Notes: generated by a model from the sequence alone, not told the origin. A stretch of 59,591 bases of DNA from an uncultured Bacilli bacterium (GCA_947632065.1 CANRNO010000005.1:1-59591), one strand, 5' to 3'; counted from the stretch's first letter, positions 12,434 through 59,587 are shown. Translations and numbers: made by a program.

Positions 12434-14581
12434 ATGACTAAGACAAAAGACCGTATTACATCAAAAGAAGTTATGGAAGCAATAAAGAAGTATATTACTG
12501 ATGAAGATGATTTCTTAAAAATAAAAAATGCTTATTTGTTCGCTAAAGAAAAACATGCTGGTCAAGTTCGTAAAACGGGTGAAGATTATATATCTCACCC
12601 TCTTAATGTTGTTAAGATATTAACTGGGGTTTATGCTGATGTTCCAACTCTTGAGGCTGCATTTTTACATGATATTTTAGAACAAGATTGTAATTGTACT
12701 GCAGATGATTTAGAGCGTGAGTTTGGACGAGAGGTTACATCTTTAGTTTTAGGTGTTACTAAACTTTCTAATATTCATTTTTCTACTGAGAATGAATACT
12801 TAATTGATTATTATAAAAAAATAATTGTAGGTATGAGTGAAGATGTTAGAGTAATTATTATTAAACTTGCTGATAGTCTTCATAATATGAGAACTCTTTG
12901 GGCTCTTCCAAAAGAACGTCAAAAAGCTAAAGCAAATGAAGCACTTGAGATTTTAGCGCCTATCGCAGATCATTTAGGAATTCATAAAATTAAAAGTGAG
13001 TTAGAAGATTTAGCTTTACGTTATTTAAAAGGAGAAGTATTTTATGACATTGCAGAAAAACTTAATAAATCAAAGTTAGAGAGAAATGCTACTGTTAATG
13101 AGATGCTTCAAGAGGTTTCTAATCTTTTAAATAAGCATGAGATTAATCATGAGATTAAAGGACGTGCTAAGAGTATTTATAGTATTTATAATAAACTTAA
13201 TAAGGGTAAAAAGTTTAGTGATATTTATGATTTACTTGCTCTTAGAATTATAGTTAATACTGAACAAGAATGTTATCTTGCTTTAGGTATTATTCATTCT
13301 AAGTTTAGACCTCTTCCTAAACGTTTTAAAGATTATATTGCGATGCCTAAACCTAATATGTATCAATCTTTACATACTACTGTTTTTGGAATAGATGGTT
13401 ATTTATTTGAGATTCAAATTAGAACTCATGAGATGGATGAAGTTGCGGAAAATGGTATTGCTAGTCATTGGGCTTATAAAGAACAAAGAGATGCTAAAGA
13501 AGCAATGAAGTCTACTACTGAACAAAAATTACAATTCTTTAAGGCTATTATGGAACTTTCTAATGAGAAATTAAGTAATGAAGAGTTTGTTAATAGTGTT
13601 AAAGAAGAGGTTTTAAATAATAATATTTATGTATTTACTCCTAAAGGGGATGTTATTGAACTTCCTAGGGGAGCAACTCCTATTGATTTTGCTTATAAGG
13701 TTCATTCTAAAGTAGGAGAGACTACAGTAGGAGCAATTGTTAATAATTGTATAGTACCTCTTAATTACGAACTTCAAAATAATGATATAGTTAAGATAAA
13801 TACTAATAAAAATTCTACACCTTCTAAAGAATGGATTAATTTTGTTAAGACAGCTGGAGCAAGAAATAGAATTAAAAGTTTCTTTACTAAAAATGAAAGA
13901 GAAGTATATATAGAAAGAGGAAAATATCTTACTGAGAAAGCTCTTCGTAAAAAGAAAATACCATTTAATGAATTATTTAGTCCAGAGAATACTAAGATAA
14001 TATTTGATGAATTAAAAATAAAAAAACTTGATGATTTATATCTTAATATTGGTAATGGTAAAACATCTATTAATACAGTTATTCATATAATTTATAAACC
14101 TGAAGAAAAAATTGTTAAGAAAAAAGCACCTGTAAAAATAGATAATAATGCAGATATTATAGTATCTGGTATAGATAATGTTAAAGTATCACTTGCAAAT
14201 TGTTGTAATCCTATTTTTGGAGATGATATTATTGGATATATTACTAAAGGTAGTGGAATTACTGTTCATAGAAGTAATTGTCATAATCTAGCAACACTTG
14301 ATGATAGGACTATTGAAGTTAGTTGGAATGAGAAATCTGCTAAAAAATATGTTTCTAATTTAATAATATATTCTAATACTCGTGATAATAATATGGTTGA
14401 TTTAGTTCAAAAGATTAGTATGCAAGATATTAATATAGAAAGAATTAATATGGTCTTTCAAAGAGAAGTTGCAGTATATGAAGTTACTATTTATGTTAGT
14501 GGGTTAAAACAGTTAAATAATTTATTACTTCAGCTTGATAAAATCTCATATATTGATAAAGTAGAGAGGTTAATAAGATGA
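12434..14581 (+). CDS. relA: Bifunctional (p)ppGpp synthetase/hydrolase, RelA/SpoT family
   Basis: HD hydrolase domain (HPLNV..., LHD), synthetase motifs (GRAKSIYSIYNKL, LALRIIV, YQSLHTTV, EIQIRTHEMD), TGS domain (VFTPKGDVIELPRGATPIDFAY) and ACT domain. Confidence 0.95.
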   Translation: MTKTKDRITSKEVMEAIKKYITDEDDFLKIKNAYLFAKEKHAGQVRKTGEDYISHPLNVVKILTGVYADVPTLEAAFLHDILEQDCNCTADDLEREFGREVTSLVLGVTKLSNIHFSTENEYLIDYYKKIIVGMSEDVRVIIIKLADSLHNMRTLWALPKERQKAKANEALEILAPIADHLGIHKIKSELEDLALRYLKGEVFYDIAEKLNKSKLERNATVNEMLQEVSNLLNKHEINHEIKGRAKSIYSIYNKLNKGKKFSDIYDLLALRIIVNTEQECYLALGIIHSKFRPLPKRFKDYIAMPKPNMYQSLHTTVFGIDGYLFEIQIRTHEMDEVAENGIASHWAYKEQRDAKEAMKSTTEQKLQFFKAIMELSNEKLSNEEFVNSVKEEVLNNNIYVFTPKGDVIELPRGATPIDFAYKVHSKVGETTVGAIVNNCIVPLNYELQNNDIVKINTNKNSTPSKEWINFVKTAGARNRIKSFFTKNEREVYIERGKYLTEKALRKKKIPFNELFSPENTKIIFDELKIKKLDDLYLNIGNGKTSINTVIHIIYKPEEKIVKKKAPVKIDNNADIIVSGIDNVKVSLANCCNPIFGDDIIGYITKGSGITVHRSNCHNLATLDDRTIEVSWNEKSAKKYVSNLIIYSNTRDNNMVDLVQKISMQDINIERINMVFQREVAVYEVTIYVSGLKQLNNLLLQLDKISYIDKVERLIR

Positions 14582-15012
14582 GAGTTTTAGTACAAAGAAG
14601 TAGTGAAGCATCTGTTTTGATAGATGATAAAGAAAAAAGAGATATTTCTTTTGGACTTGTAGTGTTTGTTGGATTTACTGATGGAGATGATATTAGTAAG
14701 ATAACTTATTTAGCTAAGAAGATAGCTAATCTTAGAATATTTCCTGATGAAGAAGGTGTGATGAATAAATCTTTACTTGATTTTGGTGGAAGTATTTTAT
14801 CTATTTCACAATTTACTTTATATGCAGATTGTAATAAAGGTAATCGTCCTAGTTATATTAAGGCTTTAGGAGGAGATAAAGCATCTTTATTATATGATGA
14901 ATTTAATAAGGAACTTTCTAAATATTGTGAGGTAGTAACAGGAAAGTTTGGATCTGATATGAAAGTTACTATTAATAATATGGGTCCTACTACTATTATG
15001 TTGGAGAGGTGA
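14578..15012 (+). CDS. dtd: D-aminoacyl-tRNA deacylase
   Basis: MRVLVQR..., SQFTLYAD, GNRPSY and PTTIMLE motifs. ATGA overlap with relA. Confidence 0.9.
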   Translation: MRVLVQRSSEASVLIDDKEKRDISFGLVVFVGFTDGDDISKITYLAKKIANLRIFPDEEGVMNKSLLDFGGSILSISQFTLYADCNKGNRPSYIKALGGDKASLLYDEFNKELSKYCEVVTGKFGSDMKVTINNMGPTTIMLER

Positions 15013-15016
15013 TATA

Positions 15017-16066
15017 ATGCTTAAAAATAAACTTAATTATAAACTTATTAATTTTACTGCTTTGATGTTATTTTTATATATTGGACTTTCTAATATAGGT
15101 TTATGGATTGGAGTTTTAAATAAGATAGTTGCAGTATTAATGCCATTCTTAATTGCGTTTGTTTTTGCTTATGCCTTATCTCCTGTAGTAAGATGGTTAG
15201 AGAATAAAAATATCAAACATTCTCTTGCGGTTACTATTGTTGTTATTGCGATTGTGTTATTTTTAACATCTTTAGTTGCGATAACTTTACCACTTGTTTA
15301 TGACCAACTTTCATCTTTATATAGGATAGTGACAGAACTTACTAATGATATGCAAGGAAGTATTACAATTGGGAATTTTACTTTTGAGATTGATAAATAT
15401 ATAGAAGTTTATTTAGAAAAATTAGGAGATTTTGTATCAGATGGTGCAGTGGATTTTGTTTTTTCATCAGTTGGTATTATTGGAACTTTTATAGTAGGAT
15501 TTATCTCATGGATATATTTTCTTTTAGATATGCAAAATATTAGAAAATTATTAAGAGATACACTTAAAAATACAAGAGAGAAAACTTATAATTATTTAAA
15601 ATGCTTAGATGTAGAAATAGGTAATTATTTAAGAGGACTTGTTATATTTATGATTATTCAATTATTTGAATATTCACTTGTATTTTTCTTAGTTGGACAT
15701 CCCAACTGGTTACTTCTTGGAATTCTAGCATCTGTTACAACGGTTATTCCTTATTTTGGAGGACTTGTTACAAATATAATCGCAGTTATTACAGGTTCTG
15801 TTGTATCAACACAAGTGTTTATTGGAACAATAATTATATGTTTAATATTCCCTCAAGTAGATGGATATTTTATATCACCAAGGATATATGGTAAAACAAA
15901 TAATATTAATCCTTTAATTACAATCATGGCAGTATCTATTGGTGGAAGTCTTGCTGGTGTTTTAGGAATAATTGCGGCACTTCCTGTTTATCTACTTATT
16001 AGAAGTACTTATCATTTCTTTAAAAATGATATTAAAGAGGTATCTAAGAAGTTGAAAGAAGACTAA
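15017..16066 (+). CDS. AI-2E (PerM/YhhT) family transporter
   Basis: About 8 TM helices and the conserved IPYFGG / ISPRIYG type motifs. Confidence 0.8.
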   Translation: MLKNKLNYKLINFTALMLFLYIGLSNIGLWIGVLNKIVAVLMPFLIAFVFAYALSPVVRWLENKNIKHSLAVTIVVIAIVLFLTSLVAITLPLVYDQLSSLYRIVTELTNDMQGSITIGNFTFEIDKYIEVYLEKLGDFVSDGAVDFVFSSVGIIGTFIVGFISWIYFLLDMQNIRKLLRDTLKNTREKTYNYLKCLDVEIGNYLRGLVIFMIIQLFEYSLVFFLVGHPNWLLLGILASVTTVIPYFGGLVTNIIAVITGSVVSTQVFIGTIIICLIFPQVDGYFISPRIYGKTNNINPLITIMAVSIGGSLAGVLGIIAALPVYLLIRSTYHFFKNDIKEVSKKLKED

Positions 16067-46581: not shown

Positions 46582-46739
46582 GTTATATCTCCTTTTCATT
46601 AAAATTATTAATATATAAATTATAAATCTTGATTAGAAGAAAATTAATACCGATAAAAATTGTTAATTTATATATGAAAAAGATTATACTTTTGTATAGT
46701 AATCATTTTTTTATACAGAATAAAGGTAAGGAGTGTATT

Positions 46740-49700
46740 ATGAAAGAAGAGAAGAATAAAAAAATAGGGATAATAATAGGATTAGTATTATTATTTATAA
46801 CTATAATAGGAGTAACATATGCAGCATTCCAATATACAAAGAGGGGAACAAAAGAAAATGAATTATCAACAGGAACAGTATCATTTGTATATAATGAAAC
46901 ATCAAATGGTGTAACATTAACAAATGCCTATCCATTAAGTGATAGTGAAGGAAAGAATTTAACAGAAGCAACAGAAGAAGATAATGGATATTTTGACTTT
47001 AATGTAACATCCACTCTAGGAGGAGATATCACAATACCATATTATGTGTATGCAGTAGATATAACAGGAGATGTAGAGAATAAATTAAGTGAAGACTATG
47101 TAAAAGTATATCTAACAGATCAAGAAGATCAACCTTTAGAAAAGTATAATGGAGAAGTACCATTATATAGTGACTTAGATGATATAAATGCACAAAGTAA
47201 AGAAGGACAAGAAGTACAAGGAAAACTATTATATCAAAATGAATTCACAGAGAGTGGAGTACATAAATATAGATTAAGGATATGGGTAGCAGACACCTAT
47301 AAAAACTCAGATAAAGCTGAAACATTTAAAATGAGAGTAGATGTAAATACAGAAGCAGAAGTAGTACCAAAAGACCAAAATAAGCCAACATGTGAGATAT
47401 TAAATGCTCAGCCAGAAGAAGCAAATGGAACACAAGATATAAGTATGACAATAAAGTGTACAGATGACAATGGAACAGTAACTTCAAATATGACAAGTGA
47501 AAATATACATGTACTTGTAGATAATGAGGAAGTAGAACCTACAAAGAAAGAACTAACAGAAGGAATAGCGGCAACAGAAGTAACAGGAGAGAATGGAATA
47601 CAACATAACTTAACTTTAAGTGGCTTTGAAAAAGATGGACCACTTTCAATCAAAATAGATAGTGGAGTAGTACAAGACCAATATAAAAACACAAATGATG
47701 AACAAGAATTATCTACAAATGTAACAGTAAATGGACAAGGTCCAACTTGTACATTAGAAGATTATTTTCCAACGAAGACAATAACAAAAGATAAGACATT
47801 AGAATTAACAATAAAATGTACAGATGATGATGGAATAAGTAAAGATTTAACTAGTGATGGATTAAAAATAAAAGTAGGAGATGAAGAAGAAACAGAATTA
47901 ACAAAAGAAATAACAAAAACAGATACAATAGAAAAAGGAAAGAAATACACAGTAGAAGTAAAAGAATTTACTAAAACAGGAAAGATTACACCAATAATAA
48001 ATGCAGAAGCATTACAAGATACAGTAGAAAACCCAAATAAAGAGACAACGTTAGATATGGATTTAGAAATAGGTAATACTCCAGCAGAAGATTTTACAGA
48101 GAATGCAAATTCATCAGAAACAGAATATAATGACGATACAAAACATGATATGTTTGAATTTAGTCAACCAGATGGAAGTACAGGATATAGATATATAGGA
48201 GATGATCCATATAACTATGTACAAATAGATGGAGAGAGTAGTTTATGGAGAATAATAGGGGTGTTTGAAGATCTATCATCTGCAAATGATAAATCTCCAA
48301 GAATAAAATTAATAAGAGATGAATCAATAGGAGATTATTCATGGGATAATAAAGCAAAGGGAACAGGATCAAACCAAAGTAGTAGTTTAGGGTCAAATAA
48401 CTGGAACGATGCAACATTAATGAATATATTAAATAGTGGAGCGTATTGGAATAAGCAAAATGGAACATGTTCAAGTGGAACTACCCTAGGAGCGACGAAA
48501 TCATGTGATTTCAGTACAACAGGACTATCAAGTACATTGAAAAACAAAATTGAAGAAATGAAATGGTATACAGGCGGATATGATAATAGTCAACCATCTG
48601 GTGCAGAGAACTATTTTACACAAGAGAGAGGAAGTAAACCAGCTGGAGCACCTAATAGTACTACGACCTGGGACGGATTTGTGGGATTGATGTATTTAAG
48701 TGACAATTATTATACATATGGAAATGGTGTAGATGATACTTGTTTTAGCAATTCTAGTAACAATTGTGATTCAAGCAATCCTAAAAAAGGATGGATACAT
48801 GCTCCATTTAATGGTCAAAAGACTCAATGGACCCTTACTCCGTCCCCCTACGATGAGCGTTCTGTAAAATTAGTCCACTCAAGCGGCTCCTATGGAAACA
48901 GTGACGCGTACGGCGAGCGTGTGGTCCGCCCAGTCGTATATCTTAAGTCTGGAACTACCCTTGGAGGAGGAGACGGACAAAAAACAAGTCCATATACAAT
49001 TGAAGAAAAGACGGTTGCGGACATAGATTTAGAAAGTCCAATCTGTAGTATAGAGTCAGTAACACCACAAAATCCTACTCAAGAAGATGAAGTACAAATA
49101 AAAATAAATTGTACGGATAATAGTGGAAAAGTAATAGAAAGGACTCCACTAATAAAGGATGATATAGAAGTGAAAATAAATGGAGAGACATCAAGTGCAA
49201 CAAAAGAATTAAATAAAACATCATCAACAGATAATGAAATAAAATATACATTAACACTAAATAATTTTGAAGAAATAGGTTCGTTATCAATAAATATACC
49301 AGCAAATAAAATATATGATGAAAGTGGAAATAGTAATATAGCGACTTCATTGACAGCAGTATTAATAAGAGGAAAGACTATAGATGTTAATGGTTTACCA
49401 AGTAATCCAAAAGATGCAGAATACAGCGATGGAACTAAAAATTCAATGTTTGAGTTTAGTCAACCAGATGGAAGTACAGGATATAGATATATAGGAGATG
49501 ATCCATATAACTATGTAAAGATGAATGATGATAATAGTGTATGGAGAATAATAGGAGTATTCAATGATTCTGACTCAACAGGAAGTAAAGACAAACAAAG
49601 AATAAAACTAATAAAAGATCAATCAGTAGGAAATATAGCATGGGATTCAAACAATAAAAATAATTGGACTAAACCAGCAACTCTACAAACCGACTTAAAT

Positions 49701-50195
49701 TCAGGAAGTACATATAGTTCATTATCAGCTACCTTAAAAGGGAAGATAGATAAAATGAAATGGTACTTAGGAGGATATGATTGGAGCGGCACTCCTTCCC
49801 TAACAACATTATTCAATGCAGAAAGAGGAAGTAATGGTGGAAACAATGGAAGTGCCCTAACCACATGGGATGGGTATGTAGGATTAATGTATCCAAGTGA
49901 TTATGGATATACATACGAAAAAGGAATAAGTGCTGCATGTACAGGTAATTTTGTTAATTGTTCTAGTGATTCAACAAAAGGATGGATACGAAAAGGACAT
50001 GAATCTGAGTATCAATGGACTCTTACTCCACGATCTAACGACACCCAATCCGTGACTCTTATCAACTTGCTCGGCTATGTCAATCCCGATTGGGCGAGCA
50101 ACGAGTTTGCGGTCCGCCCCGTCGTTTATCTTAAATCCGGAACTACCTTCTCTGGTGGAACCGGTACCAGTAATTCTCCATATATCTTAAAATAG
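46740..50195 (+). CDS. Giant surface protein, paralog 1 (1151 aa): TasA/camelysin-like signal and N-domain, two Cys-pair Ig-like repeats, lectin-like domain, Ig-like repeat, second lectin-like domain
   Basis: AAGGAG RBS before ATG 46740. N-terminus MKEEKNKKIGIIIGLVLLFITIIGVTYAAF. Repeats of ..P(T/I)C........I(K/N)CTD(D/N).G. Two domains ending WTLTP...VRPVVYLKSGTT. Confidence 0.85.
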   Translation: MKEEKNKKIGIIIGLVLLFITIIGVTYAAFQYTKRGTKENELSTGTVSFVYNETSNGVTLTNAYPLSDSEGKNLTEATEEDNGYFDFNVTSTLGGDITIPYYVYAVDITGDVENKLSEDYVKVYLTDQEDQPLEKYNGEVPLYSDLDDINAQSKEGQEVQGKLLYQNEFTESGVHKYRLRIWVADTYKNSDKAETFKMRVDVNTEAEVVPKDQNKPTCEILNAQPEEANGTQDISMTIKCTDDNGTVTSNMTSENIHVLVDNEEVEPTKKELTEGIAATEVTGENGIQHNLTLSGFEKDGPLSIKIDSGVVQDQYKNTNDEQELSTNVTVNGQGPTCTLEDYFPTKTITKDKTLELTIKCTDDDGISKDLTSDGLKIKVGDEEETELTKEITKTDTIEKGKKYTVEVKEFTKTGKITPIINAEALQDTVENPNKETTLDMDLEIGNTPAEDFTENANSSETEYNDDTKHDMFEFSQPDGSTGYRYIGDDPYNYVQIDGESSLWRIIGVFEDLSSANDKSPRIKLIRDESIGDYSWDNKAKGTGSNQSSSLGSNNWNDATLMNILNSGAYWNKQNGTCSSGTTLGATKSCDFSTTGLSSTLKNKIEEMKWYTGGYDNSQPSGAENYFTQERGSKPAGAPNSTTTWDGFVGLMYLSDNYYTYGNGVDDTCFSNSSNNCDSSNPKKGWIHAPFNGQKTQWTLTPSPYDERSVKLVHSSGSYGNSDAYGERVVRPVVYLKSGTTLGGGDGQKTSPYTIEEKTVADIDLESPICSIESVTPQNPTQEDEVQIKINCTDNSGKVIERTPLIKDDIEVKINGETSSATKELNKTSSTDNEIKYTLTLNNFEEIGSLSINIPANKIYDESGNSNIATSLTAVLIRGKTIDVNGLPSNPKDAEYSDGTKNSMFEFSQPDGSTGYRYIGDDPYNYVKMNDDNSVWRIIGVFNDSDSTGSKDKQRIKLIKDQSVGNIAWDSNNKNNWTKPATLQTDLNSGSTYSSLSATLKGKIDKMKWYLGGYDWSGTPSLTTLFNAERGSNGGNNGSALTTWDGYVGLMYPSDYGYTYEKGISAACTGNFVNCSSDSTKGWIRKGHESEYQWTLTPRSNDTQSVTLINLLGYVNPDWASNEFAVRPVVYLKSGTTFSGGTGTSNSPYILK
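48117..49001 (+). repeat. Lectin-like domain copy 1 of paralog 1 (intragenic duplication with 49413-50192)
   Basis: Shares a 71/72-nt identical block (48150-48221 vs 49446-49517) and the same motif order (YRYIGDDPYNYV, WRIIGVF, MKWY.GGYD, GLMY.SD, QWTLTP, VRPVVYLKSGTT). Confidence 0.8.
48831..48937 (+). other. GC-rich, A-poor, NNC-codon hypervariable island A (DGR VR-like)
   Basis: Encodes TLTPSPYDERSVKLVHSSGSYGNSDAYGERVVRPV. Codons such as TCC CCC TAC, CAC, AGC GGC TCC, GAC GCG TAC GGC, and CGC for Arg. Confidence 0.5.
49413..50192 (+). repeat. Lectin-like domain copy 2 of paralog 1
   Basis: See 48117-49001. Confidence 0.8.
50019..50170 (+). other. GC-rich, A-poor, NNC-codon hypervariable island B (DGR VR-like), close to the stop codon
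   Basis: Encodes TLTPRSNDTQSVTLINLLGYVNPDWASNEFAVRPVVYLKSGTTFSGGTG. Contains GCGGTCCGCCCCGTCGT. Confidence 0.5.
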
Positions 50196-50294
50196 TCAGA
50201 TTAAAAGATACTTTTGTTTTTCTTCTTAAGTATGTGTTCTAAAAGTGAAAAGATAGTTATTAAATAATAAAAGAGTGTTTGTTTGATAATATAT

Positions 50295-50322
50295 AAGAGA
50301 GTATACTTGTGTATACTCTCTT
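50295..50322. terminator. Bidirectional 12-bp perfect hairpin between convergent genes
   Basis: AAGAGAGTATAC-ttgt-GTATACTCTCTT. Confidence 0.7.
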
Positions 50323-50329
50323 AAAGATT

Positions 50330-50638
50330 TTATAAATAAAAAATAGGTTGATTATCTGTTGCTTGTTGTATGTTGTTTTCTTGCGCTATGCTTTCATTTG
50401 TGTTGTTATCTCCTTTTACTGCACCAATTATTTTAAACATTGTTTTAGCATTATTCACCATGGGTTTTACTTGATAAGCAATTGGTATAGCTTGATTTAT
50501 AATATTTAAAGTTTTTTGAGTATTATTTAACATAGTTGACCAATTTATACTTCTTAATCCTGCAACTGGGAAAATTCTGCTTAAAAGACTTCCACCTCTA
50601 GGTATAGGAGTAGGGTTGAATCCAAATCCACCATTCAT
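50330..50638 (-). CDS. VrrA/YqfQ family protein (102 aa)
   Basis: G/P-rich N-terminus, then INWSTMLNNTQKTLNIINQAIPIAYQVKPMVNNAKTMFKIIGAVKG, which matches my memory of Bacillus YqfQ. AGAGGTG RBS before ATG 50638, so the track start at 50785 is too long. Confidence 0.6.
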   Translation of the reverse strand: MNGGFGFNPTPIPRGGSLLSRIFPVAGLRSINWSTMLNNTQKTLNIINQAIPIAYQVKPMVNNAKTMFKIIGAVKGDNNTNESIAQENNIQQATDNQPIFYL

Positions 50639-50753
50639 AAATATACACCTCTTATTAAAGTATATGTTAAAAAAATAAAAATGTTTTAAAAAGCATTTAA
50701 AAAATATAGTAATTATGATATATTTGTTATATAGGATAAGGAGGGCTCTTGAT

Positions 50754-52163
50754 ATGGACATACTTTTAAAACCATTTATATACATATATCATGCAGTTAG
50801 TGGTATTTTTTCAGCACCTAAAAATATATCAAAAAAAGAGCCTGTACATAATTATGGGACTCCTATAAGTAAAAAGAAAAAAGAAGAAGATAAAAATGAA
50901 GATTATAAAAAGAATTTAGTTGGTATAGTAGATAATAAAAAGAAAGAAGTTAAAAAATTAAATCAATTTAGATATACTATTATAAATTCTAGTGGTAAAA
51001 AAGAAAGTTCTATATTTGAAGCTGAAACTATAGAAGAAGCTAGAAATTATCTTACATCACAAGATTATAAAATAGTAAAACTAGAACCTAAAAGTAAATA
51101 TGATATAGAAATAGGTGGAGATGGAAAACTAAAAGCTGCACAACTTTCATTTTCGCTTACACAACTTTCTACATATATAAAAGCAGGTATACCTTTAGTA
51201 GATTCTATGAAGATACTTGCTAAACAAGCTACTAAATCTAATGAAAAAAGAGCATATCAAAGAATAGTATATGATTTACTTCGTGGAGAAAATTTATCTG
51301 ATGCAATGGAAAAACAAGGAGAGAAATTTCCTAAACTATTAATTAATATGATTAAAACAGCAGAGATGACAGGAGATTTACCTAGTATATTAGATGATAT
51401 GGCAGAGTATTATACTTCAATGGAGAAAACTAGAAAAGCAATGATTAGTGCGATGACTTATCCTGTTGTTGTATTAACTATTGCAATAGGTGTTTTAATA
51501 TTTATGCTTATGTTTATAGTTCCTAGATTCGTTGAAATGTTTGAAAGTCAAGATGCAGAACTTCCTTTTATAACTTTAGCAGTTATAGGTGCTAGTGACT
51601 TTTTAAAAGCTAATTATTTATGGGTTTTACTTTTTCTTGTAGTGTTTATAGGAACAATATATTACTTATATAAAAATATAGTTGGATTTAGAAAAAATGT
51701 ACAATTTGTATTAATGAAAATACCTGTTGTTAGTAAGATTATTATATATAATGAAGTTACTAATTTTACTAAGACTTTTGCATCTCTTTTAAATCATGGA
51801 GTTTTAATTACTGATTGTATGGATATATTATCTAAGATTACTAATAATGAAATTTATAAAGAGATAATTGCTAAGACTTTATATAATCTTGGTAAAGGGG
51901 ATTCTATATCAGAATCATTTAAAGGTCAATGGGCTTTTCCTGTTGTTGCATATGAAATGTTAGTTACTGGAGAAAATACAGGACAGTTAGGTTTAATGAT
52001 GGAGAAAGTATCTGATCATTTTCAAACATTGCATAAAGCAATTATTGATCAGTTAAAGGCATTAATTGAACCTTTAATGATTGCTGTTTTAGCAGTTATA
52101 GTTGGTATTATATTACTTTCTATAGTTGTTCCAATGTTTGATATTTATGGAAAGATTCAGTAG
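50754..52163 (+). CDS. Type II secretion system F family platform protein (PilC/ComGB-like) with an N-terminal extension of about 90 aa
   Basis: FRYTIINSSGKKESSIFEAETIEEARNYL N-domain, two T2SSF repeats and 3 TM helices. AAGGAGGG lies 8 nt before ATG 50754. Confidence 0.85.
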   Translation: MDILLKPFIYIYHAVSGIFSAPKNISKKEPVHNYGTPISKKKKEEDKNEDYKKNLVGIVDNKKKEVKKLNQFRYTIINSSGKKESSIFEAETIEEARNYLTSQDYKIVKLEPKSKYDIEIGGDGKLKAAQLSFSLTQLSTYIKAGIPLVDSMKILAKQATKSNEKRAYQRIVYDLLRGENLSDAMEKQGEKFPKLLINMIKTAEMTGDLPSILDDMAEYYTSMEKTRKAMISAMTYPVVVLTIAIGVLIFMLMFIVPRFVEMFESQDAELPFITLAVIGASDFLKANYLWVLLFLVVFIGTIYYLYKNIVGFRKNVQFVLMKIPVVSKIIIYNEVTNFTKTFASLLNHGVLITDCMDILSKITNNEIYKEIIAKTLYNLGKGDSISESFKGQWAFPVVAYEMLVTGENTGQLGLMMEKVSDHFQTLHKAIIDQLKALIEPLMIAVLAVIVGIILLSIVVPMFDIYGKIQ

Positions 52164-52171
52164 GTGATAGT

Positions 52172-52936
52172 ATGGAGTTATTATATTATATAGGATTCTT
52201 TGTTCTAGGTATTCTACTTGGATCTTTTTATGGTGTTGTGGGAATGAGGATGCCTGTTAATGAAAGTTTTATAAAAGGGAGAAGTCATTGTGATAAATGT
52301 CACCATGAACTTTCTTTTATTGATTTAATACCTCTTTTATCTTTTGCAATGAGTGGAGGTAGATGTCGTTATTGTGGTAAGAAAATATCAGCGATACTAC
52401 CTTTAACTGAACTTGCTTGTGGTATTTTATTTATGGTTTCATATTATAGTTTTGGTATTTCTCTTGATTTAGTTTTAGCACTTTCAATAGTATCATTACT
52501 AATGATAGTATTAGTTAGTGATTTAACTTATTTTATTATTCCTGATGAAGTATTATTGTTTTTTAGTATTGAGTTTATAATTATTCAAATTTTTAGAGTA
52601 GGATTTTTATCTACTTTAGGACATATAGGATGTGGTATGTTTTTATTTGCACTTATGTATTTAATATTGGTTATAGGAAATAAATTGTTTAAAAAAGAGA
52701 GTATGGGGGGTGCTGATGTAAAACTGATGTTTTTATTTGGTCTTGTACTTGATCCTTTATTAGGTACTATAACAATATTTTTAGGAAGTTTTTTTGCTCT
52801 TCCTATATCAATGATAATTTATTATATAAATAAAGATAGAGTTATACCTTTTGGACCTTTCTTAGTACTAGCATTCTTATTTATGTTTTTTGTAAAAATA
52901 TCAACCGCAGAAATTCTTTATTTTTTGGGGATTTAA
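52172..52936 (+). CDS. Prepilin peptidase (peptidase A24, PilD/ComC type)
   Basis: N-terminal CxxC...CxxC (CDKCHH, CRYCGK), catalytic Asp motifs (VSDLTYFIIPDE, GGADVKLM) and a polytopic membrane layout. Confidence 0.9.
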   Translation: MELLYYIGFFVLGILLGSFYGVVGMRMPVNESFIKGRSHCDKCHHELSFIDLIPLLSFAMSGGRCRYCGKKISAILPLTELACGILFMVSYYSFGISLDLVLALSIVSLLMIVLVSDLTYFIIPDEVLLFFSIEFIIIQIFRVGFLSTLGHIGCGMFLFALMYLILVIGNKLFKKESMGGADVKLMFLFGLVLDPLLGTITIFLGSFFALPISMIIYYINKDRVIPFGPFLVLAFLFMFFVKISTAEILYFLGI

Positions 52937-52950
52937 AAATAATTTTAATG

Positions 52951-52973
52951 AGCACTTGTTAGTGCTTTTTTTA
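52951..52973 (+). terminator. Rho-independent terminator after prepilin peptidase gene
   Basis: AGCACT-tgtt-AGTGCT followed by T6. Confidence 0.7.
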
Positions 52974-53125
52974 TTTGTATAAAATTCTACAAATTACTAC
53001 TTTTTATTTTTGTATAATGATTATACTAACTTGGTAATAATTGGGTGGCTACAAATACGAACGTAAATGGTACAATCATAATGAAGATAGTAACGATATG
53101 TAGAGTATAGTGAGGAGAGTATGAA

Positions 53126-56100
53126 ATGAAAGAAGAAAAGAATAGAAAAGCAATAATAATGATATTAACAATATCATCAATATTAGTAGTATTAGGGACA
53201 ACATATGCAGCATTTGTATATACAGGGAAAGGAACAAAAGAAAACAGTGTAACAACAGGAGATGTTTCTTTTGTATATAATGAAACAAGTAATGGAATAT
53301 CCATTACAAATGCATATCCAATGAATGATGAAAAAGGAAAAGTTCTAACAGATGAAGGAGAAAATGTAACAAAAGGATATTTTGATTTTAATGTAGAGTC
53401 AACAATGGGAGCATCAACAATAATACCATATTATGTGTATGCAGTAGATATGACAGAAGAGGATGCTAAAAAATTAGATACAAATTATGTAAAGATATAT
53501 CTAACAGACCAAGATGAGAGTGCAATAGAAGGATATGAAGAAGTACCAGTATATGCAGATTTAGATGATATAACAGCACAAGAGGATGGAGAGGAAGTAA
53601 AAGGAAAATTATTATATCAAGATACATTTTATGAAAGTGGAACAAAAGAGTTTAGATTAAGATTATGGGTATCAGATGAGTATGAAGTAAAAGAAGAGTC
53701 AGAAAAGTTTAAAATGAGAGTAGATGTAAGTACAGATGCAGAAGTAATACCAAAAGACCAGAATAAACCAACATGTGAAATAGTAGATGCAAGTCCACAA
53801 ACAGCAGGAGCAAATCAAGATATAAGTATGACTATAAAATGTACGGATGATAATGGAACAGTAACTTCAAATATGACAAAAGAAAACATACATGTCTTAG
53901 TAAATAACGAAGAAGTAGAACCTACAAAGAAAGAGTTAAGTGAAGGAATAGCGGCAACAGAAGTAACAGGAGAGAATGGAGTACAACATAACTTAACATT
54001 ATCAGGTTTTGAAAAGGATGGACCACTTTTAATAAAAATAGATAGTGGAGTAATAAGTGACCAATATAAGAACACAAATGATGAACAGGAACTATCAACA
54101 AATGTAACAGTAAATGGACAAGGTCCAACTTGTACATTAGAAGATTATTTTCCAACAAAGACAATAACAAAAGATAAGATATTAGAATTAACAATAAATT
54201 GTACAGATGAAAATGGAATAGGTAAAGATTTAACAGAAGATGGATTAAAAATAAAAGTAGGAGATGAAGAAGAAACAGAATTAACAAAAGAAATAAAAAA
54301 TACAGAGTCTATAGACCAAGGAAATAAATACACAGTAGAAATAAAAGGATTTACAAAGACAGGAAAGATAGAACCAATAATAAATGCAGATTCATTACAA
54401 GATACATTAGAAAATTCAAATAAAGAGATAACATTAGATATGGATTTAGAGGTTGAAGCTGCAACAATAAACGGAGTATCTACGAATACTTCAGAAACAG
54501 AATATAATGATGATACAAAGCATGATATGTTTCAAATTACACATGATGGAGTCACAGAATATAGATATATAGGAGATGATCCATATAATTATGTACAAAT
54601 AGACGGAGAAAGTAGTTTATGGAGAATAATAGGAGTAGTAGAAGATGAAAACTCATCAGGAGTAAAAGAAGGAAGAATAAAATTAATGAGAGATGAGAAT
54701 ATAGGAAAGTATTCATGGGATAATAAAACAAAAGGAAGTGGTTCTAACTTAAGTAGTAGTTATGGATCAAACAACTGGAATGATTCGACATTAAAAGGAA
54801 TACTAAACACAGGTGGAGCATATTACAATAAAACGAATGGAACATGTTCAACTGGAGCAACCTTAGGAGCAAGTAAAGTATGTGACTTCAGTACAACAGG
54901 ATTATCAAGTACATTAAAAGGCAAGATAGAGAATATGAAGTGGTACTTAGGGGGAATGAGAAGTTATAGTAATTTTACAACATCAGACTGGTATAAGGGA
55001 GAAAGAGGAAGTGAAACATGTATCACAACAGGAAGTTGTTCAAGTGAGAAAACAAGAGAGACAACAGGAACAGGAGAAGTAGGATTAATGTATCCATCAG
55101 ATTATGGATTTACATTTGCAAATGGAGTAAACCAAGGATGTTATGATAAACCTAATTCATGTTATAGTGGAGGAAGTACAACAGATCCTCAACCAAGTAA
55201 AAGTTGGATTTATAAACAAGATTCAAGTAGTGCCCAATGGACTCTCTCTCCGCGTTCGGATTACGCGTACGGCGTGTTCTATGTCTACCCGAACGGCAAT
55301 GTCGACGGCAGCGGCTACGCGAACAACGAGATTGTGGTCCGCCCAGTTGTATATCTAAAATCTGGTACGACCCTTGGAGGAGGAGATGGACAAAAAACAA
55401 GTCCATATACAATTGGAGAAAAGACGGATGCGGACATAGATTTAGAAAGTCCAATCTGTAGTATAGAGTCAGTAACACCACAAAATCCTACCCAAGAAGA
55501 TGAAGTACAAATAAAAATAAATTGTACAGATAATAGTGGAAAAGTAATAGAGAAGTCAACAATAACAAAAGAAGATATAGAAGTAAAAATAAATGGAGAG
55601 ACATCAAGTGCAACAAAAGAATTAAATAAAATATCATCAACAGATAATGAAATGAAATATACATTAACACTAAATAATTTTGACAAAGCAGGTTCTCTAT
55701 CCATAAATATACCAGCAAATAAAGTATATGATGAAAGTGGAAATAGTAATATAGTAACTTCATTAACGGTAGGAATAATAAGAGGAAAGACTGTAAATGT
55801 TAATGGATTACCAAGTAATCAAAAAGATGCAGAATACAACGATGGAACTAAAAATGCAATGTTTGAGATAGAACATGACAACGTCACAGAATATAGATAT
55901 ATAGGAGATGATCCATATAACTATGTACAAATAGATGGAGAAAGTAGTTTGTGGAGAATCATCGGAGTAGTAGAAGATGAAAACTCAACAGGAAAGAAAG
56001 AAGCAAGAATCAAATTAATGAGAGATGAGAATATAGGAAGTTACTCATGGGATAATAAAACAAAAGGAATAGGATCGAATTTAACTAGTAGTTTAGGGTC

Positions 56101-56749
56101 AAATAACTGGAATGATTCAACGTTAAAAGGAATATTAAATACAGGAGCATATTGGAATAAAGAAAATGGAACATGTTCAACTGGAACAACCTTAGGAGCA
56201 AGTAAAGCATGTGATTTCTCAACAACAGGATTATCAAGTACATTAAAAGGAAAAATAGAGAATATGAAATGGTACTTAGGAGGAATGCGAAATTATTCTA
56301 ATTTCACAACATCAGATTTCTATAACGGAGAACGAGGAAGTGAAACATGTATAACAACAGGAAAATGTTCAAGTGAGAAAACAAGAGAGACAACAGGAAC
56401 AGGATATGTAGGATTGATGTATCCTTCAGATTATGGATTTACATTTATAAATGGAGTAAACCAAGGATGTTATGATAAACTTAATGCATGTTATAGTGGA
56501 GGAAGTAGTACTTCTACTCCTGACCCAACCAAGAGTTGGATTTATAAACAAGACTTAAGTAGTGTACAATGGACTCTCTCTCCGTATACCGACTACTCAA
56601 GCGATGTGTTCTATGTCCTCTCAAGCGGCCGAGTCACCTTCTACAGCGCGAACACCGAGTTTGGGGTCCGCCCCGTCGTATATCTAAAATCTGGAACTAC
56701 TCTTGGTGGTGGAACAGGAGCTAAGGAGAATCCGTATAAAATACAATAA
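53126..56749 (+). CDS. Giant surface protein, paralog 2 (1207 aa), same architecture as paralog 1
   Basis: GAGGAG RBS. N-terminus MKEEKNRKAIIMILTISSILVVLGTTYAAF. About 90% identical to paralog 1 over the Ig-like segments by eye. Two lectin-like domains ending WTLSP...VRPVVYLKSGTT. Confidence 0.85.
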   Translation: MKEEKNRKAIIMILTISSILVVLGTTYAAFVYTGKGTKENSVTTGDVSFVYNETSNGISITNAYPMNDEKGKVLTDEGENVTKGYFDFNVESTMGASTIIPYYVYAVDMTEEDAKKLDTNYVKIYLTDQDESAIEGYEEVPVYADLDDITAQEDGEEVKGKLLYQDTFYESGTKEFRLRLWVSDEYEVKEESEKFKMRVDVSTDAEVIPKDQNKPTCEIVDASPQTAGANQDISMTIKCTDDNGTVTSNMTKENIHVLVNNEEVEPTKKELSEGIAATEVTGENGVQHNLTLSGFEKDGPLLIKIDSGVISDQYKNTNDEQELSTNVTVNGQGPTCTLEDYFPTKTITKDKILELTINCTDENGIGKDLTEDGLKIKVGDEEETELTKEIKNTESIDQGNKYTVEIKGFTKTGKIEPIINADSLQDTLENSNKEITLDMDLEVEAATINGVSTNTSETEYNDDTKHDMFQITHDGVTEYRYIGDDPYNYVQIDGESSLWRIIGVVEDENSSGVKEGRIKLMRDENIGKYSWDNKTKGSGSNLSSSYGSNNWNDSTLKGILNTGGAYYNKTNGTCSTGATLGASKVCDFSTTGLSSTLKGKIENMKWYLGGMRSYSNFTTSDWYKGERGSETCITTGSCSSEKTRETTGTGEVGLMYPSDYGFTFANGVNQGCYDKPNSCYSGGSTTDPQPSKSWIYKQDSSSAQWTLSPRSDYAYGVFYVYPNGNVDGSGYANNEIVVRPVVYLKSGTTLGGGDGQKTSPYTIGEKTDADIDLESPICSIESVTPQNPTQEDEVQIKINCTDNSGKVIEKSTITKEDIEVKINGETSSATKELNKISSTDNEMKYTLTLNNFDKAGSLSINIPANKVYDESGNSNIVTSLTVGIIRGKTVNVNGLPSNQKDAEYNDGTKNAMFEIEHDNVTEYRYIGDDPYNYVQIDGESSLWRIIGVVEDENSTGKKEARIKLMRDENIGSYSWDNKTKGIGSNLTSSLGSNNWNDSTLKGILNTGAYWNKENGTCSTGTTLGASKACDFSTTGLSSTLKGKIENMKWYLGGMRNYSNFTTSDFYNGERGSETCITTGKCSSEKTRETTGTGYVGLMYPSDYGFTFINGVNQGCYDKLNACYSGGSSTSTPDPTKSWIYKQDLSSVQWTLSPYTDYSSDVFYVLSSGRVTFYSANTEFGVRPVVYLKSGTTLGGGTGAKENPYKIQ
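54494..55414 (+). repeat. Lectin-like domain copy 1 of paralog 2
   Basis: Internal duplication with 55826-56746 (EYRYIGDDPYNYVQIDGESSLWRIIGVVEDENS is almost identical in both). Confidence 0.8.
55241..55350 (+). other. GC-rich, A-poor, NNC-codon hypervariable island C (DGR VR-like)
   Basis: Hand count over 110 nt gives 64 G+C (58%) and 20 A (18%). 16 of the 28 codons between TLSP and VRP are NNC. Encodes TLSPRSDYAYGVFYVYPNGNVDGSGYANNEIVVRPVV. Confidence 0.55.
55826..56746 (+). repeat. Lectin-like domain copy 2 of paralog 2
   Basis: See 54494-55414. Confidence 0.8.
56573..56680 (+). other. GC-rich, A-poor, NNC-codon hypervariable island D (DGR VR-like), close to the stop codon
   Basis: Encodes TLSPYTDYSSDVFYVLSSGRVTFYSANTEFGVRPVV. 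16 of 27 variable-segment codons are NNC. Contains GGGGTCCGCCCCGTCGT. Confidence 0.5.
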
Positions 56750-56780
56750 AGTAATTAAGAAAATTCAAATTGTAATATAA

Positions 56781-56810
56781 AAGAGAATGTAATGAGAGTT
56801 ACATTCTCTT
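56781..56810 (+). terminator. 12-bp hairpin terminator after paralog 2
   Basis: AAGAGAATGTAA-tgagag-TTACATTCTCTT. Confidence 0.65.
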
Positions 56811-56941
56811 AGTTTGTGAATTCACTAATTATTGGGAAAGTTAATCTTTCTTTTTTTTGTGTTTTATTACTTCTTCCATCATTTTGTTTTTTAATTTATA
56901 ATTTTGATGTATAATAAATTATAGAGTTAAAGGAGGATATT

Positions 56942-58237
56942 ATGAAGAAGAATATTACTACATTGCCTGCGGATACTTATTTGGTAGTTAATAAAACTAA
57001 TATAGTTGAGTCTGATCGTAAGATTATTACTATGCTTTATCAACCTATTATTGGATATACTTCAGTTAGTTTGTATTTTACTTTAATAGATGATTTAGAA
57101 AAGTCTATTGATGAGTTTACTCATCATCATTTAATGACTATTATGCAACTTAAACTTGATGATATTGTGAGTGCTAGAGAAAGATTAGAGGCAGTTGGAC
57201 TTTTAAAAACTTATATTAAACCTGGTAATGTTAATAAATATATTTATCAAATATATTCTCCTATATCTGCTCATGATTTTTTTAATCATCCAATACTTAA
57301 TGTAGTACTTTATAATAATATAGGTAAGAAAGAGTATGAAGAGGCTTTATCATATTATAAAGTACCTAGAATTAATTTAAGAGATTATGATGATATCACT
57401 TCAAAGTTTGATGATGTTTTTAAAACTTATCCTGGACATGGAGTAGAGGGTAATACTGATATAATAAAACATGAAAGTAATAAAATATCTTTAAATAAAG
57501 AAATTGATTTTGATATGTTAATATCTAGTATTCCTAAGAGTATGGTTAGTGATAGGTGTTTTAATAAAGATGTTAAATATTTAATTAATTCTTTGAGTTA
57601 TGCTTATAATATAGATACTTTAAATATGTTAGGACTCGTTAGAGATTCTATTAATGAGAAAGGACTTATTGATCAAAAACTATTAAGAAAGAGTTGTCGT
57701 AATTTTTATCAATTTGAAAATGGGGGTAGACTTCCTACTTTGATTTATACAAAACAACCTAGTTTTTTAAAGAAACCTGAAGGAGATAATTCTAAATGGG
57801 CTAAGATGGTTTATACTTTTGAAAATATTTCTCCATATGACTTTTTAAAGAGTAGATGTAAAGGTGGGGAACCTACTAATAGAGATGTTAGACTTATAGA
57901 GAGTCTACTTGTTGATCAAAAACTTAAACCTGGTGTTGTTAATGTGCTTATATATTATGTTTTAAAGATGAATAATCAAAAACTTAATAAGAGTTATATA
58001 GAAAGTATTGTTGGACAATGGAAAAGACTTAATATTGAGACTGTAGAGGAAGCTATGAGGATTACTGAAAAAGAACATAAGAAGAATAAGAAATTATTTA
58101 ATAAGAATAAGATAATTAATAAGAAGAAAAAACGTGAAGAAGAACTTCCTGCATGGTTTAATGAGAATTTAGATAATTTATCTGCTTCTAAAGATGAAGA
58201 GGAAGAAATGGAGAAAATACTTAATGAACTTGCATAA
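56942..58237 (+). CDS. DnaD-domain replication initiation / helicase-loading protein (Firmicute DnaB-like)
   Basis: N-terminal wHTH-like region (MLYQPIIGYTSVSLYFTL) and C-terminal DnaB_2/DnaD repeat (VNVLIYYVLKMNNQKLNKSYIESIVGQWKRLNIETVEEAM). AAAGGAGG RBS. Confidence 0.65.
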   Translation: MKKNITTLPADTYLVVNKTNIVESDRKIITMLYQPIIGYTSVSLYFTLIDDLEKSIDEFTHHHLMTIMQLKLDDIVSARERLEAVGLLKTYIKPGNVNKYIYQIYSPISAHDFFNHPILNVVLYNNIGKKEYEEALSYYKVPRINLRDYDDITSKFDDVFKTYPGHGVEGNTDIIKHESNKISLNKEIDFDMLISSIPKSMVSDRCFNKDVKYLINSLSYAYNIDTLNMLGLVRDSINEKGLIDQKLLRKSCRNFYQFENGGRLPTLIYTKQPSFLKKPEGDNSKWAKMVYTFENISPYDFLKSRCKGGEPTNRDVRLIESLLVDQKLKPGVVNVLIYYVLKMNNQKLNKSYIESIVGQWKRLNIETVEEAMRITEKEHKKNKKLFNKNKIINKKKKREEELPAWFNENLDNLSASKDEEEEMEKILNELA

Positions 58238-58286
58238 AGTTCTTTTTTTTGGTATAATATGTCCTACATTTTTGGGGGTTTTAGTT

Positions 58287-58835
58287 ATGAGTAAATATGC
58301 TAAAAGGGAAATTAAAAGAAGGATTTTTTATATACTTTATACAGTTGTTTTTGTTGTGGTATCAACTTATATTTGGCTTGGTTATAGAGATAATATAAAA
58401 ACAAGTAGAAATATTTCTTTTAGTAGAGTTGCTTATGCTGAAAAGTTAGATTTTAAAGAGATTACAGAGCCCTTAGATGTAAATTCAGATAAGTTAACAG
58501 AAGAAGATGAATATAAATTTTCTATTACTAATAAATCATCAAAAACTATTAGTTATTTAGTATCTTTTAGAAGTGATACTAATAAAATAGGAAGTGATGG
58601 ATGTAGTAGAATTATTCCTAATAATTATATTAAGTATCGTATTAAGAAAAATGATGAAGAGTATAGTTCTATTAGAAATTTAGCTGTTGATGGTAAGATA
58701 TATTTAGATAATTTAGACAGTGGTGATACATCAGTTTTTAGTATTATGTATTGGATTGATGATAGTGCGTATAATGATGTAAAGAATGGACATTTTCATA
58801 GTAAAATTGCGTTAATTAATAATAATTATTCTTAA
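58287..58835 (+). CDS. Membrane-anchored small protein resembling the N-terminal domain of the giant surface proteins
   Basis: GGGGG lies 8 nt before ATG 58287. One N-terminal TM. YKFSITN...YIKYRI...GKIYLDNL...FSIMYWIDDS...FHSKIAL parallels YFDFNVT...YVKVYL...GKLLYQNE...YRLRIWVADT...FKMRVDV. Confidence 0.5.
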   Translation: MSKYAKREIKRRIFYILYTVVFVVVSTYIWLGYRDNIKTSRNISFSRVAYAEKLDFKEITEPLDVNSDKLTEEDEYKFSITNKSSKTISYLVSFRSDTNKIGSDGCSRIIPNNYIKYRIKKNDEEYSSIRNLAVDGKIYLDNLDSGDTSVFSIMYWIDDSAYNDVKNGHFHSKIALINNNYS

Positions 58836-58893
58836 AATAATTGTTATTTAGTCTCTTCTATGTTAAACTTAAAAGAGTGAAAAGGTGATTTTA

Positions 58894-59394
58894 ATGTTTA
58901 ATAAATCGAATGAAGATTTTTGTAGTATAGTACAAGATATTTTAGATAATAAAGAGTTTCAAGAAATGAAGTCTATAGCACATCATGGTATTACTAGATA
59001 TCATCATTTACTTCGTGTTTCTTATTATACATATATTGTTACTAAGTTTTTAAGACTTGATTATAAGAAGTCTACTAGGGCAGCTTTACTTCATGATTTT
59101 TTCTATAATGAAGAGGGGGAAAATCATAGTAAGGCTCGTGTTTGGAGAATGCATCCTGAGTATGCTGTTAAGAATGCTGAGAGAGTTTTTGGTTCTCTTA
59201 GTGAGAAAGAAAAGGATATTATAAGAACTCATATGTTTCCTGTTACATTTACACCACCTAAGTATTTAGAAAGTTGGATTGTAGATTTTATTGATGATAT
59301 AGCAGGTATATATGAAAAGACTTATAGTTTACGTATTGAATTTAATACAGTTAGTAGTTTTTTAATGTTTATATTTATTAGTTATTTTCATTAA
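58894..59394 (+). CDS. HD domain phosphohydrolase-family protein
   Basis: HHGITRYHHLLRVS ... ALLHDFF (H...HD signature). Confidence 0.7.
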   Translation: MFNKSNEDFCSIVQDILDNKEFQEMKSIAHHGITRYHHLLRVSYYTYIVTKFLRLDYKKSTRAALLHDFFYNEEGENHSKARVWRMHPEYAVKNAERVFGSLSEKEKDIIRTHMFPVTFTPPKYLESWIVDFIDDIAGIYEKTYSLRIEFNTVSSFLMFIFISYFH

Positions 59395-59442
59395 ACATGA
59401 AATGGTTTCATGTTTTTTCTTTTTGTGATAAAATATATTTAT

Positions 59443-59519
59443 GTCTTTGTAGCTCAGTTGGATAGAGCAATCGCCTCCTAAGCGATAGGTCGGCAGTTCG
59501 AATCTGCCCAAGGACACCA
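59443..59519 (+). tRNA. tRNA-Arg (anticodon CCT)
   Basis: Cloverleaf read by hand. Acceptor GTCTTTG/CAAGGAC, D arm GCTC-AGTTGGATA-GAGC, anticodon arm ATCGC-CTCCTAA-GCGAT, T arm GGCAG-TTCGAAT-CTGCC, encoded CCA. Confidence 0.9.
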
Positions 59520-59561
59520 TTGGGAAATCTGGTCGAACTTTTTTCGACATTGATATATAGG

Positions 59562-59587
59562 TCAACCTAAAAATAGGTTGATTTTTC
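59562..59587 (+). terminator. Rho-independent terminator after tRNA
   Basis: TCAACCTA-aaaa-TAGGTTGA followed by TTTTT. Confidence 0.75.

Follow-up and report, generated by a model that had tools for sequence, protein, structure and literature searches.

Proteins with a DUF6273 domain are among the known targets of diversity-generating retroelements (DGRs). The domain has been described as C-type-lectin-like (PMC10743442), and the variable regions (VRs) of DGRs map to its C-terminus (PMC11792537, PMC10743442), with examples in the Faecalibacterium prophages Lelie, CP11, Roos, and Pioen and in the 'tentaclins' of phages nd4 and nd12 (PMC11792537, PMC10743442). Remote or multiple targets have been reported for the Treponema denticola TvpA family, Legionella LdtA, and a Stenotrophomonas system with two template repeats (TRs) and several VRs, and more than one TR per DGR element has been reported computationally (PMC4891356, PMC5758913, PMC6642488). 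In this work, we analyzed a 59,591-base contig of an uncultured gut Bacilli bacterium (GCA_947632065.1 CANRNO010000005.1:1-59591), hereafter the window; all negative results for the window cover these 59.6 kb. Two giant paralogous genes, here called G1 and G2, each contain two GC-rich islands at the ends of lectin-like domains, and these four islands are very probably VRs written by a DGR.

As a DUF6273-class DGR target this is a known kind; what is particular here is that the targets are chromosomal, giant, and doubly diversified, that they flank pilC and pilD, and that they have no adjacent core and would require several templates. They resemble the targets of gut Firmicutes phages in the domain family, the C-terminal VR, and the AAC-rich templates. 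Unlike those phage targets, they are chromosomal proteins of 1151-1207 amino acids (aa) with two diversified domains each, and they flank pilC and pilD with no DGR core adjacent. A tblastn search of the window targets against 50,697 phage records gave no match, and IMG/VR yielded one relative only. A TR from the related locus L002, described below, has a weak blastn match to an unannotated stretch of phage nd12. The genes and islands are as follows.

46740..50195, plus strand: giant paralogue G1, 1151 aa when counted from MKEEKNKK as the start (mechanical open reading frame, ORF, from 46629).
53126..56749, plus strand: giant paralogue G2, 1207 aa, with the architecture of G1.
48838-48931, plus strand: VR A, 94 nt, CTCCG...GTCCGCCC, terminal part of G1's first lectin-type domain (~48090-49010).
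50026-50119, plus strand: VR B, 94 nt, terminal part of G1's C-terminal lectin-type domain (~49419-50192).
55248-55344, plus strand: VR C, 97 nt with one extra codon, terminal part of G2's first lectin-type domain (~54500-55420).
56580-56673, plus strand: VR D, 94 nt, terminal part of G2's C-terminal lectin-type domain (~55832-56746).
48924..48937, 50112-50125, 55337-55350, and 56666-56679, plus strand: GC-rich 3' boundary core GTCCGCCC(A/C)GT(C/T)GT, the presumed end of retrohoming, similar to an initiation of mutagenic homing (IMH) site.

G1 contains an N-terminal hydrophobic segment, immunoglobulin-like repeats, and two DUF6273-like lectin-type domains, and the two proteins share 65% identity. 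The homologue P0002 is the same 1151-aa protein as G1. Each giant gene encodes two copies of a ~260-300-aa domain, and each copy ends with QWTL(T/S)P, 28-29 residues, and then VRPVVYLKSG. An earlier note on this DNA, made from the raw sequence, had pointed to GC-rich islands at these domain ends. They are real and are the four highest 100-nt GC peaks of the window (A, 0.58; B, 0.56; C, 0.60; D, 0.58; window mean 0.275, standard deviation 0.061); the sole other peak above the mean by more than 3.5 standard deviations is a tRNA at the contig end.

The composition of the islands is as foreign and adenine-depleted as the earlier note had described. By base counts, the window has 27.5% G+C (18.3% G vs. 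9.2% C) and 39% A, whereas the islands have 52-58% GC and 18-22% A. Third-position C occurs in 53% of the 113 island codons and in 6% of the other 2247 codons of G1 and G2 (odds ratio 17.7, p = 2e-38), in line with the claim that over half of the island codons are NNC (A, 13/28; B, 13/28; C, 17/29; D, 17/28). Third-position A falls to 9% in the islands from 54% in the rest of both genes. The synonymous choice inside the islands is GTC or GTG rather than GTA for Val, GGC rather than GGA for Gly, and GCG rather than GCA for Ala. A codon flip had been proposed for Val and Arg; it holds for Val, but the Arg codons of the islands are CGT or CGA, and CGC belongs to the conserved Arg of VRPV. An adenine-poor scaffold with NNC codons is a trait of DGR VRs, and the islands have it.

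The ends of the islands are equally regular. The core GTCCGCCCMGTYGT has four exact occurrences in the window, one per island end, against 0.06 expected, so that the shared ending proposed earlier is upheld; allowing two mismatches in the core pattern still recovered only the four islands in the window. A GC-rich 3' boundary element where VR/TR homology ends, similar to an IMH site, is another DGR trait found here. The limits first given for the islands had to be trimmed to ~94-97 nt, and island B as originally drawn (to 50170) overran into a GC-richer C-terminal tail; island C is indeed one codon longer (97 nt vs. 94 nt). The flanks had been called near-identical. Downstream, all four copies are well conserved; upstream, near-identity holds only for C and D (four differences in 30 nt, compared with 12-18 for other pairs).

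The evidence for a DGR origin of the islands comes mainly from relatives, including one with templates. Whole-protein comparison found seven homologues of the giant proteins, mostly from rabbit-gut metagenome-assembled genomes (MAGs). One of them, P0006, from the closest relative with a TR, is encoded on contig CANQHJ010000021.1 ('MAG: uncultured Bacilli bacterium Lapin-030__bin52', rabbit gut; locus L002), and its gene has one island of the same kind (L002 13098-13191). The 1.8 kb right after the P0006 stop codon are non-coding and contain an array of five TR units in tandem, ~285 nt each (L002:13525-14885). Each unit consists of a leader, a TR ending with GGGGTCCGCCC, a conserved ~110-nt structured 3' element, and a terminator-like hairpin. 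The TRs are 91- or 94-nt AAC-rich copies of the island, with translations such as HSGNTNNVNLVWSNGNVNNNNAYNENGVR. Of the 94 positions of the L002 VR, 11 differ from TR2, and each of these is an adenine in the TR. Judged from these sequences, such adenine-only differences are diagnostic of mutagenic retrohoming by a DGR. Relative to unit 2, the remaining units also carry changes at non-adenine positions, and unit 1 is one codon shorter. VR/TR homology stops at GGGGTCCGCCC in L002 and likewise in locus L010, and in L002 this stop coincides with the GC-rich element that the earlier note had assigned to the 3' end of the VR.

No RT (reverse transcriptase) gene was found within ~10 kb upstream or ~9 kb downstream of the array in the fetched L002 locus. 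The L002 array gave no match in Rfam, and a promoter scan of it did not rise above shuffled sequences. A limited literature search turned up no account of five TR units arrayed in tandem beside a target and away from an RT. The gene following the array (L002:15034-22698) encodes a 2554-aa Peptidase_M26 protein of the immunoglobulin A (IgA)-protease family.

The window islands are related to these templates at the DNA level. An nhmmer profile built from six TR units (5' leader, TR, and 3' element) matched the window at the four islands only (C, 1e-15; D, 4e-14; B, 9e-11; A, 2e-5). The matches span essentially the TR part (profile positions ~31 to 132-140) and not the 3' element; the match of island C starts at position 6, and all matches end at or just past the last TR column, at position 132-140. 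The scaffold codons GTG, GTC, AAC-GGC-AAT-GTC, GCG, and GAG align codon for codon between the window islands and the L002 TRs. Compared with L002 TR1, VR D has mismatches at 62% of adenine vs. 12% of other positions (p = 8.5e-7) and VR C at 47% vs. 10% (p = 1.3e-4; 15 adenine and six non-adenine mismatches). VRs A and B show the same trend against the L002 TRs.

Canonical DGR cores occur in the wider family of this domain. A single-domain search found 2306 proteins at E <= 0.001, mostly ~400-aa proteins from gut metagenomes. Genes for Avd, RT, and an accessory protein, together with a TR, adjoin domain homologues with 35-43% identity at loci L010, L050, L068, L075, L078, and L079. In L010, the order is a prepilin-type gene, the target, a 127-aa accessory gene, Avd (NCBIfam DivGenRetAVD), RT, and the TR. 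Avd and RT are intact in L050, L068, L075, L078, and L079. The VR/TR pairs of L075 and L079 have no non-adenine mismatch in the 60-nt segment compared, and those of L010 have one or two. The L010 TR unit is homologous to the units of the L002 array across the 5' leader, the TR, and the 3' element, and the 3' element has a conserved fold of 43 pairs (13 with compensatory changes) ending in a terminator-like hairpin. The DGR reading of the window islands is supported by their DNA homology to genuine TRs and, in relatives, by adenine-specific VR/TR pairs and linkage to Avd and RT.

The target domain of these canonical cassettes is homologous to that of the window, the TR family is the same, and the cassettes and the window family share the TR 3' boundary, the 3' element, and adenine-specific VR/TR pairs. 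The canonical arrangement has one ~400-aa target with an accessory gene, Avd, RT, and one TR, in contrast to four VRs and no core genes in the window. The L010 target follows a prepilin-type gene, and the window targets flank pilus-assembly genes. The VR composition signature is general across the family, and among the 42 homologous metagenomic loci whose downstream sequence extends for 3 kb or more, only four carry an RT; together these findings indicate that orphan or remote VRs are common.

Some of these cores are rearranged. At L010:12126-16635, the RT is split into parts of 206 and 151 aa by three consecutive tyrosine-recombinase genes (12867-16048), with the TR still downstream of the C-terminal part. 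Locus L025 (6386-8287) has a remnant DGR in which the target, the TR, and the accessory gene precede an IS605 OrfB/TnpB gene that occupies the expected place of Avd and RT. The ~120-130-aa protein kept beside Avd in the DGR cores of this family has a weak MutS_I match in Pfam and is presumably an accessory factor.

L010:11428-11811: MutS_I-like accessory gene; homologues in L017, L025, L050, L068, L075, L078, and L079.

The protein domain is also of the expected kind. VR C with its flank (G2 residues 700-746) aligns to positions 127-172 of the 172 in DUF6273 (PF19789), which bears out the claimed VR position, the C-terminal end of a C-type-lectin-fold domain. The score is 38.1 bits against a gathering cut-off of 23.5 and covers the C-terminal 46 profile positions of one domain; G1 had no match to DUF6273 in Pfam at E <= 0.01. 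Homologues, including P0003, carry PF19789. The window domains are ~260-300 aa long, compared with 172 in PF19789, and have insertions. In an alignment of 77 domain sequences, the VR is the most variable 27-residue stretch (rank 1 of 232).

An AlphaFold model of domain B (window 49419-50192; model md412f8ffb30a) was made from the same number of aligned sequences and is confident, with a predicted local distance difference test score (pLDDT) of 84 and a predicted template modeling score (pTM) of 0.87; it places the VR in beta strands. Foldseek comparison with BFVD gave matches to some DUF1566 proteins and, at E = 1e-8 to 1e-4, to many phage DUF6273 proteins. The best PDB match is an IgA peptidase domain of Thomasclavelia ramosa (9qa6; E = 4e-7, template modeling score 0.55 over 295 columns), and matches to the C-terminal domain of Legionella Lcl and to classical C-type lectins are weak (E >= 0.3). 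The predicted structure thus agrees with the phage DUF6273 proteins but gives only faint resemblance to the C-type lectins that the earlier note had in mind. The modeled similarity to an IgA peptidase, together with the Peptidase_M26 gene after the L002 array, hints at a possible link with host immunoglobulin or mucosal binding.

The four window VRs differ from one another more than one template could produce. Of the 94 aligned columns, 58 vary (62%), many of them at third codon positions, whereas TRs of this family have 29-37% adenine. Given this excess and the extra codon of VR C, one template is insufficient; a single template for all four VRs was considered and ruled out by the variable columns, as the earlier note had anticipated. 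With differences at 30 columns, C and D could have come from one template or two similar ones; on their sequences, A and B would need others. Most likely, the four VRs were written from several related TRs of slightly different lengths. By analogy, the five TRs of L002, which are distinct at non-adenine positions and in length and share the same homing end, may serve as a model for the window genome.

A third giant paralogue, P0005 (1143 aa), was found at position 481-3912 of L003 and L004 (ENA ERZ27249309 and ERZ27249097). Its N-terminus is nearly identical to that of G1, and it has its own GC-rich VR at 3736-3843; its gene is followed by one for an AAA ATPase and not by a TR array. Since P0005, with its own VR, occurs in the same samples as the window strain at similar coverage, the genome probably has at least five VRs.

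Each island encodes ~28-29 C-terminal residues of one DUF6273-type, C-type-lectin-like domain in a giant putative surface protein. In the preferred scenario, an AAC-rich, otherwise adenine-poor and GC-rich TR would be transcribed, an Avd-RT complex would copy it into cDNA with template adenines randomized, and the cDNA would replace the VR up to the GC-rich boundary GGTCCGCCC. The scaffold codons (GTC, GGC, GCG, TCG, and CGC) would be copied faithfully from the adenine-avoiding template, and AAC would become NNC; such copying would explain the foreign composition of the islands. The RT, Avd, accessory gene, and TRs are absent from the contig and would act in trans from elsewhere in the genome or would have been lost. 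In either case, this genome presumably has or had its own TRs and RT.

A further proposal, which we hold tentatively and consider possible rather than likely, is that the DGR of this lineage is split into a trans-acting RT and a tandem library of distinct TR units that share the homing end GGGGTCCGCCC and would each come with a leader, a structured 3' element, and a terminator-like hairpin; any of them may be written into any of at least four VRs of the giant, putatively pilus-linked proteins. If true, cassette-style switching of scaffold and length would be combined with adenine mutagenesis, and the four islands would be the footprint of template choice.

Other described systems share parts of this arrangement. 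As in remote-target DGRs, VRs would be served in trans by a distant core, with several targets per genome and coreless targets in some strains; in those systems the VRs match one TR (or two), whereas the four VRs of the window need several templates. Similar to the DGR of Bordetella phage BPP-1 (Mtd, Avd, TR, and bRT), the window family has adenine mutagenesis, a VR at the C-terminus of a C-type-lectin-fold domain, and a GC-rich 3' element. Unlike BPP-1, the window VRs have no Bordetella-type hairpin downstream, the TR of the relatives is often downstream of the RT or right after the target, and there is an extra 127-aa accessory gene.

Several results weigh against a DGR origin of the islands. 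The earlier note had reported neither an RT nor a template in the window, and all our searches agree. Pfam detected no RVT_1 or Avd domain in the 39 window ORFs that reach 150 aa; the L010 proteins (Avd, RT, and the 127-aa accessory protein), used as tblastn queries, had no match in the window; an adenine-tolerant sliding comparison on both strands found no template there (even the closest other sites show 18 or more non-adenine mismatches); and the TR-unit nhmmer profile found no template in addition to the islands. The TR 3'-element motif is absent from the window, and no significant DNA hairpin of the Bordetella type was found downstream of the VRs. Beyond the window, a search with AACGAGAATGNGGTCCGCCC in the genome contig collection matched only the L002 contig and did not find the genome's own template, and a gapped TR pattern had no match in the metagenome and viral contig collections; GGTCCGCCCACTCGATA gave four chance matches among viral contigs, in GC-rich phages. 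The adenine enrichment of the window-VR mismatches was measured against the foreign TRs of L002, and for VRs A and B the mismatches at non-adenine positions of these TRs amount to 24-35%; therefore, the templates of A and B are quite different, or these two VRs have drifted.

Comparison among samples also shows no sign of ongoing diversification at the consensus level in VRs A, B, and D of the same strain. L096 (ENA ERZ27249097) is 99.86% identical to window 46621-53180, with identical VRs A and B, and VR D is identical in ERZ27249097 and ERZ27249309. L098 and L099 are 100% identical to the window over 55994-59569 and 56366-59569, respectively. In all, three ENA assemblies (ERZ27249097, ERZ27249309, and ERZ27249088) hold this strain, at 99.9-100% identity. 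The dominant VR alleles are thus stable among samples that probably share one clone. The differences between the window and L096 are all clustered at 47774-47855, where the L096 version is 100% identical to the paralogous G2 segment (54143-54253); this patch is either a gene conversion between paralogues or an assembly chimera.

These observations bear on an alternative in which the islands are fossil VRs, written by a DGR in the past and now frozen as coding sequence after loss of the RT, Avd, and TRs. The contig without a core and the unchanged VRs A, B, and D agree with it, as do the decayed or disrupted cores common in the family (the IS605 TnpB of L025 and the RT of L010 split by recombinases), the scarcity of RT among homologous loci (4/42), and the Treponema target genes that remain after core loss (PMC4891356). 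Against it, the GC-rich NNC composition is intact in a genome of 27.5% GC, where AT-biased mutation would be expected to erode synonymous sites. In addition, P0001, the G2 orthologue, differs from G2 chiefly within the VR. Its overall identity to G2 is 77%, reaching ~90-100% over most of residues 1-870 with dips at the island and at ~421-480, and only 12 of 29 residues of VR C are common between near-identical flanks. The invariant samples represent the same strain (99.9-100% identity) and carry little information on rate, and remote targets served in trans are well known (PMC5758913). We regard fossil VRs as a rather unlikely explanation, though one to be taken seriously. The intact GC-rich synonymous sites in an AT-rich genome, together with the divergence of P0001, argue for recent writing. 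Provided that the VRs were written by a DGR, the chances that the system still works in this genome are roughly even.

The earlier note had also raised cassette gene conversion, in which GC-rich silent donors would recombine into expression sites without an RT, like pilS/pilE, vls, or tprK. The five tandem non-coding cassettes after the expressed gene in L002, with no RT within ~10 kb upstream or ~9 kb downstream, would fit such a system. The differences among window islands beyond point changes, length included, and the patch apparently exchanged between G1 and G2 (if not a chimera) would fit as well. However, all 11 differences between the L002 VR and its donor fall at donor adenines, which recombination does not produce; in the silent-cassette systems (pilS/pilE, vlsE, tprK, and MgPa), donors are copied without base-specific mutation. 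Furthermore, the L002 cassettes share the 5' leader and the structured 3' element, with its 13 compensatory pairs, with the Avd/RT-linked TR of L010, and the donors are AAC-rich like DGR templates. The strictly adenine-specific VR/TR differences in relatives thus led us to reject this explanation, which we consider highly improbable. Least credible of all is that no special mechanism operated and that the islands arose by selection on codons or residues or by horizontal acquisition of a GC-rich domain segment long ago: the domain is widespread (2306 proteins in the family) and usually without a nearby RT, but the anomaly is limited to ~95 nt of an AT-rich domain with a sharp end at the TR boundary, recurs at the same position in 4/4 copies and across the family, includes a synonymous flip that residue selection leaves unexplained, and matches non-coding templates of relatives at the DNA level.

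The genes around the DGR-type targets are those of a Bacilli-type chromosome. Pfam identified the housekeeping genes topA, secDF, relA, hisS, gyrBA, the hrcA-grpE-dnaK-dnaJ operon, and tgt in the window. Strand asymmetry is extreme: the plus strand carries 38 of the 39 ORFs that reach 150 aa, and the whole contig is co-oriented, presumably with replication. The sole minus-strand gene of the window is a YqfQ-like ORF (50330-50785) between G1 and pilC, which was called as a 102-aa gene in L096. A 1262-aa ORF at the contig start (173-3961) encodes another large protein, whose function is unknown; it lacks a VR-like island and matched nothing in Pfam or NCBIfam. Two pilus-assembly genes (50715..52936) sit between G1 and G2 and are given here as context.

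50715-52163, plus strand: PilC-like platform protein (T2SSF; Pfam E = 1e-50).
52172-52936, plus strand: prepilin peptidase (A24; Pfam E = 7e-29).

The products of G1 and G2 may be adhesin-like, pilus-associated proteins. An impression of a SipW/TasA-type signal peptide in the giant proteins was dropped as unsupported, since an NCBIfam search of these proteins gave no match.

These results indicate that DGR VRs can be recognized from raw sequence as GC-rich, NNC-rich, adenine-poor islands at the ends of lectin-type domains. Such recognition works when the RT and the template are off the contig, a case that RT-anchored DGR finders skip. With these proteins, the list of DGR targets gains chromosomal, giant, and doubly diversified members that are located beside pilus-assembly genes in uncultured gut Bacilli. 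The several templates suggested for the window, together with the five-unit TR array of its relative, point to a possible extra layer of DGR function, in which a choice may be made among scaffolds that differ in sequence and length.

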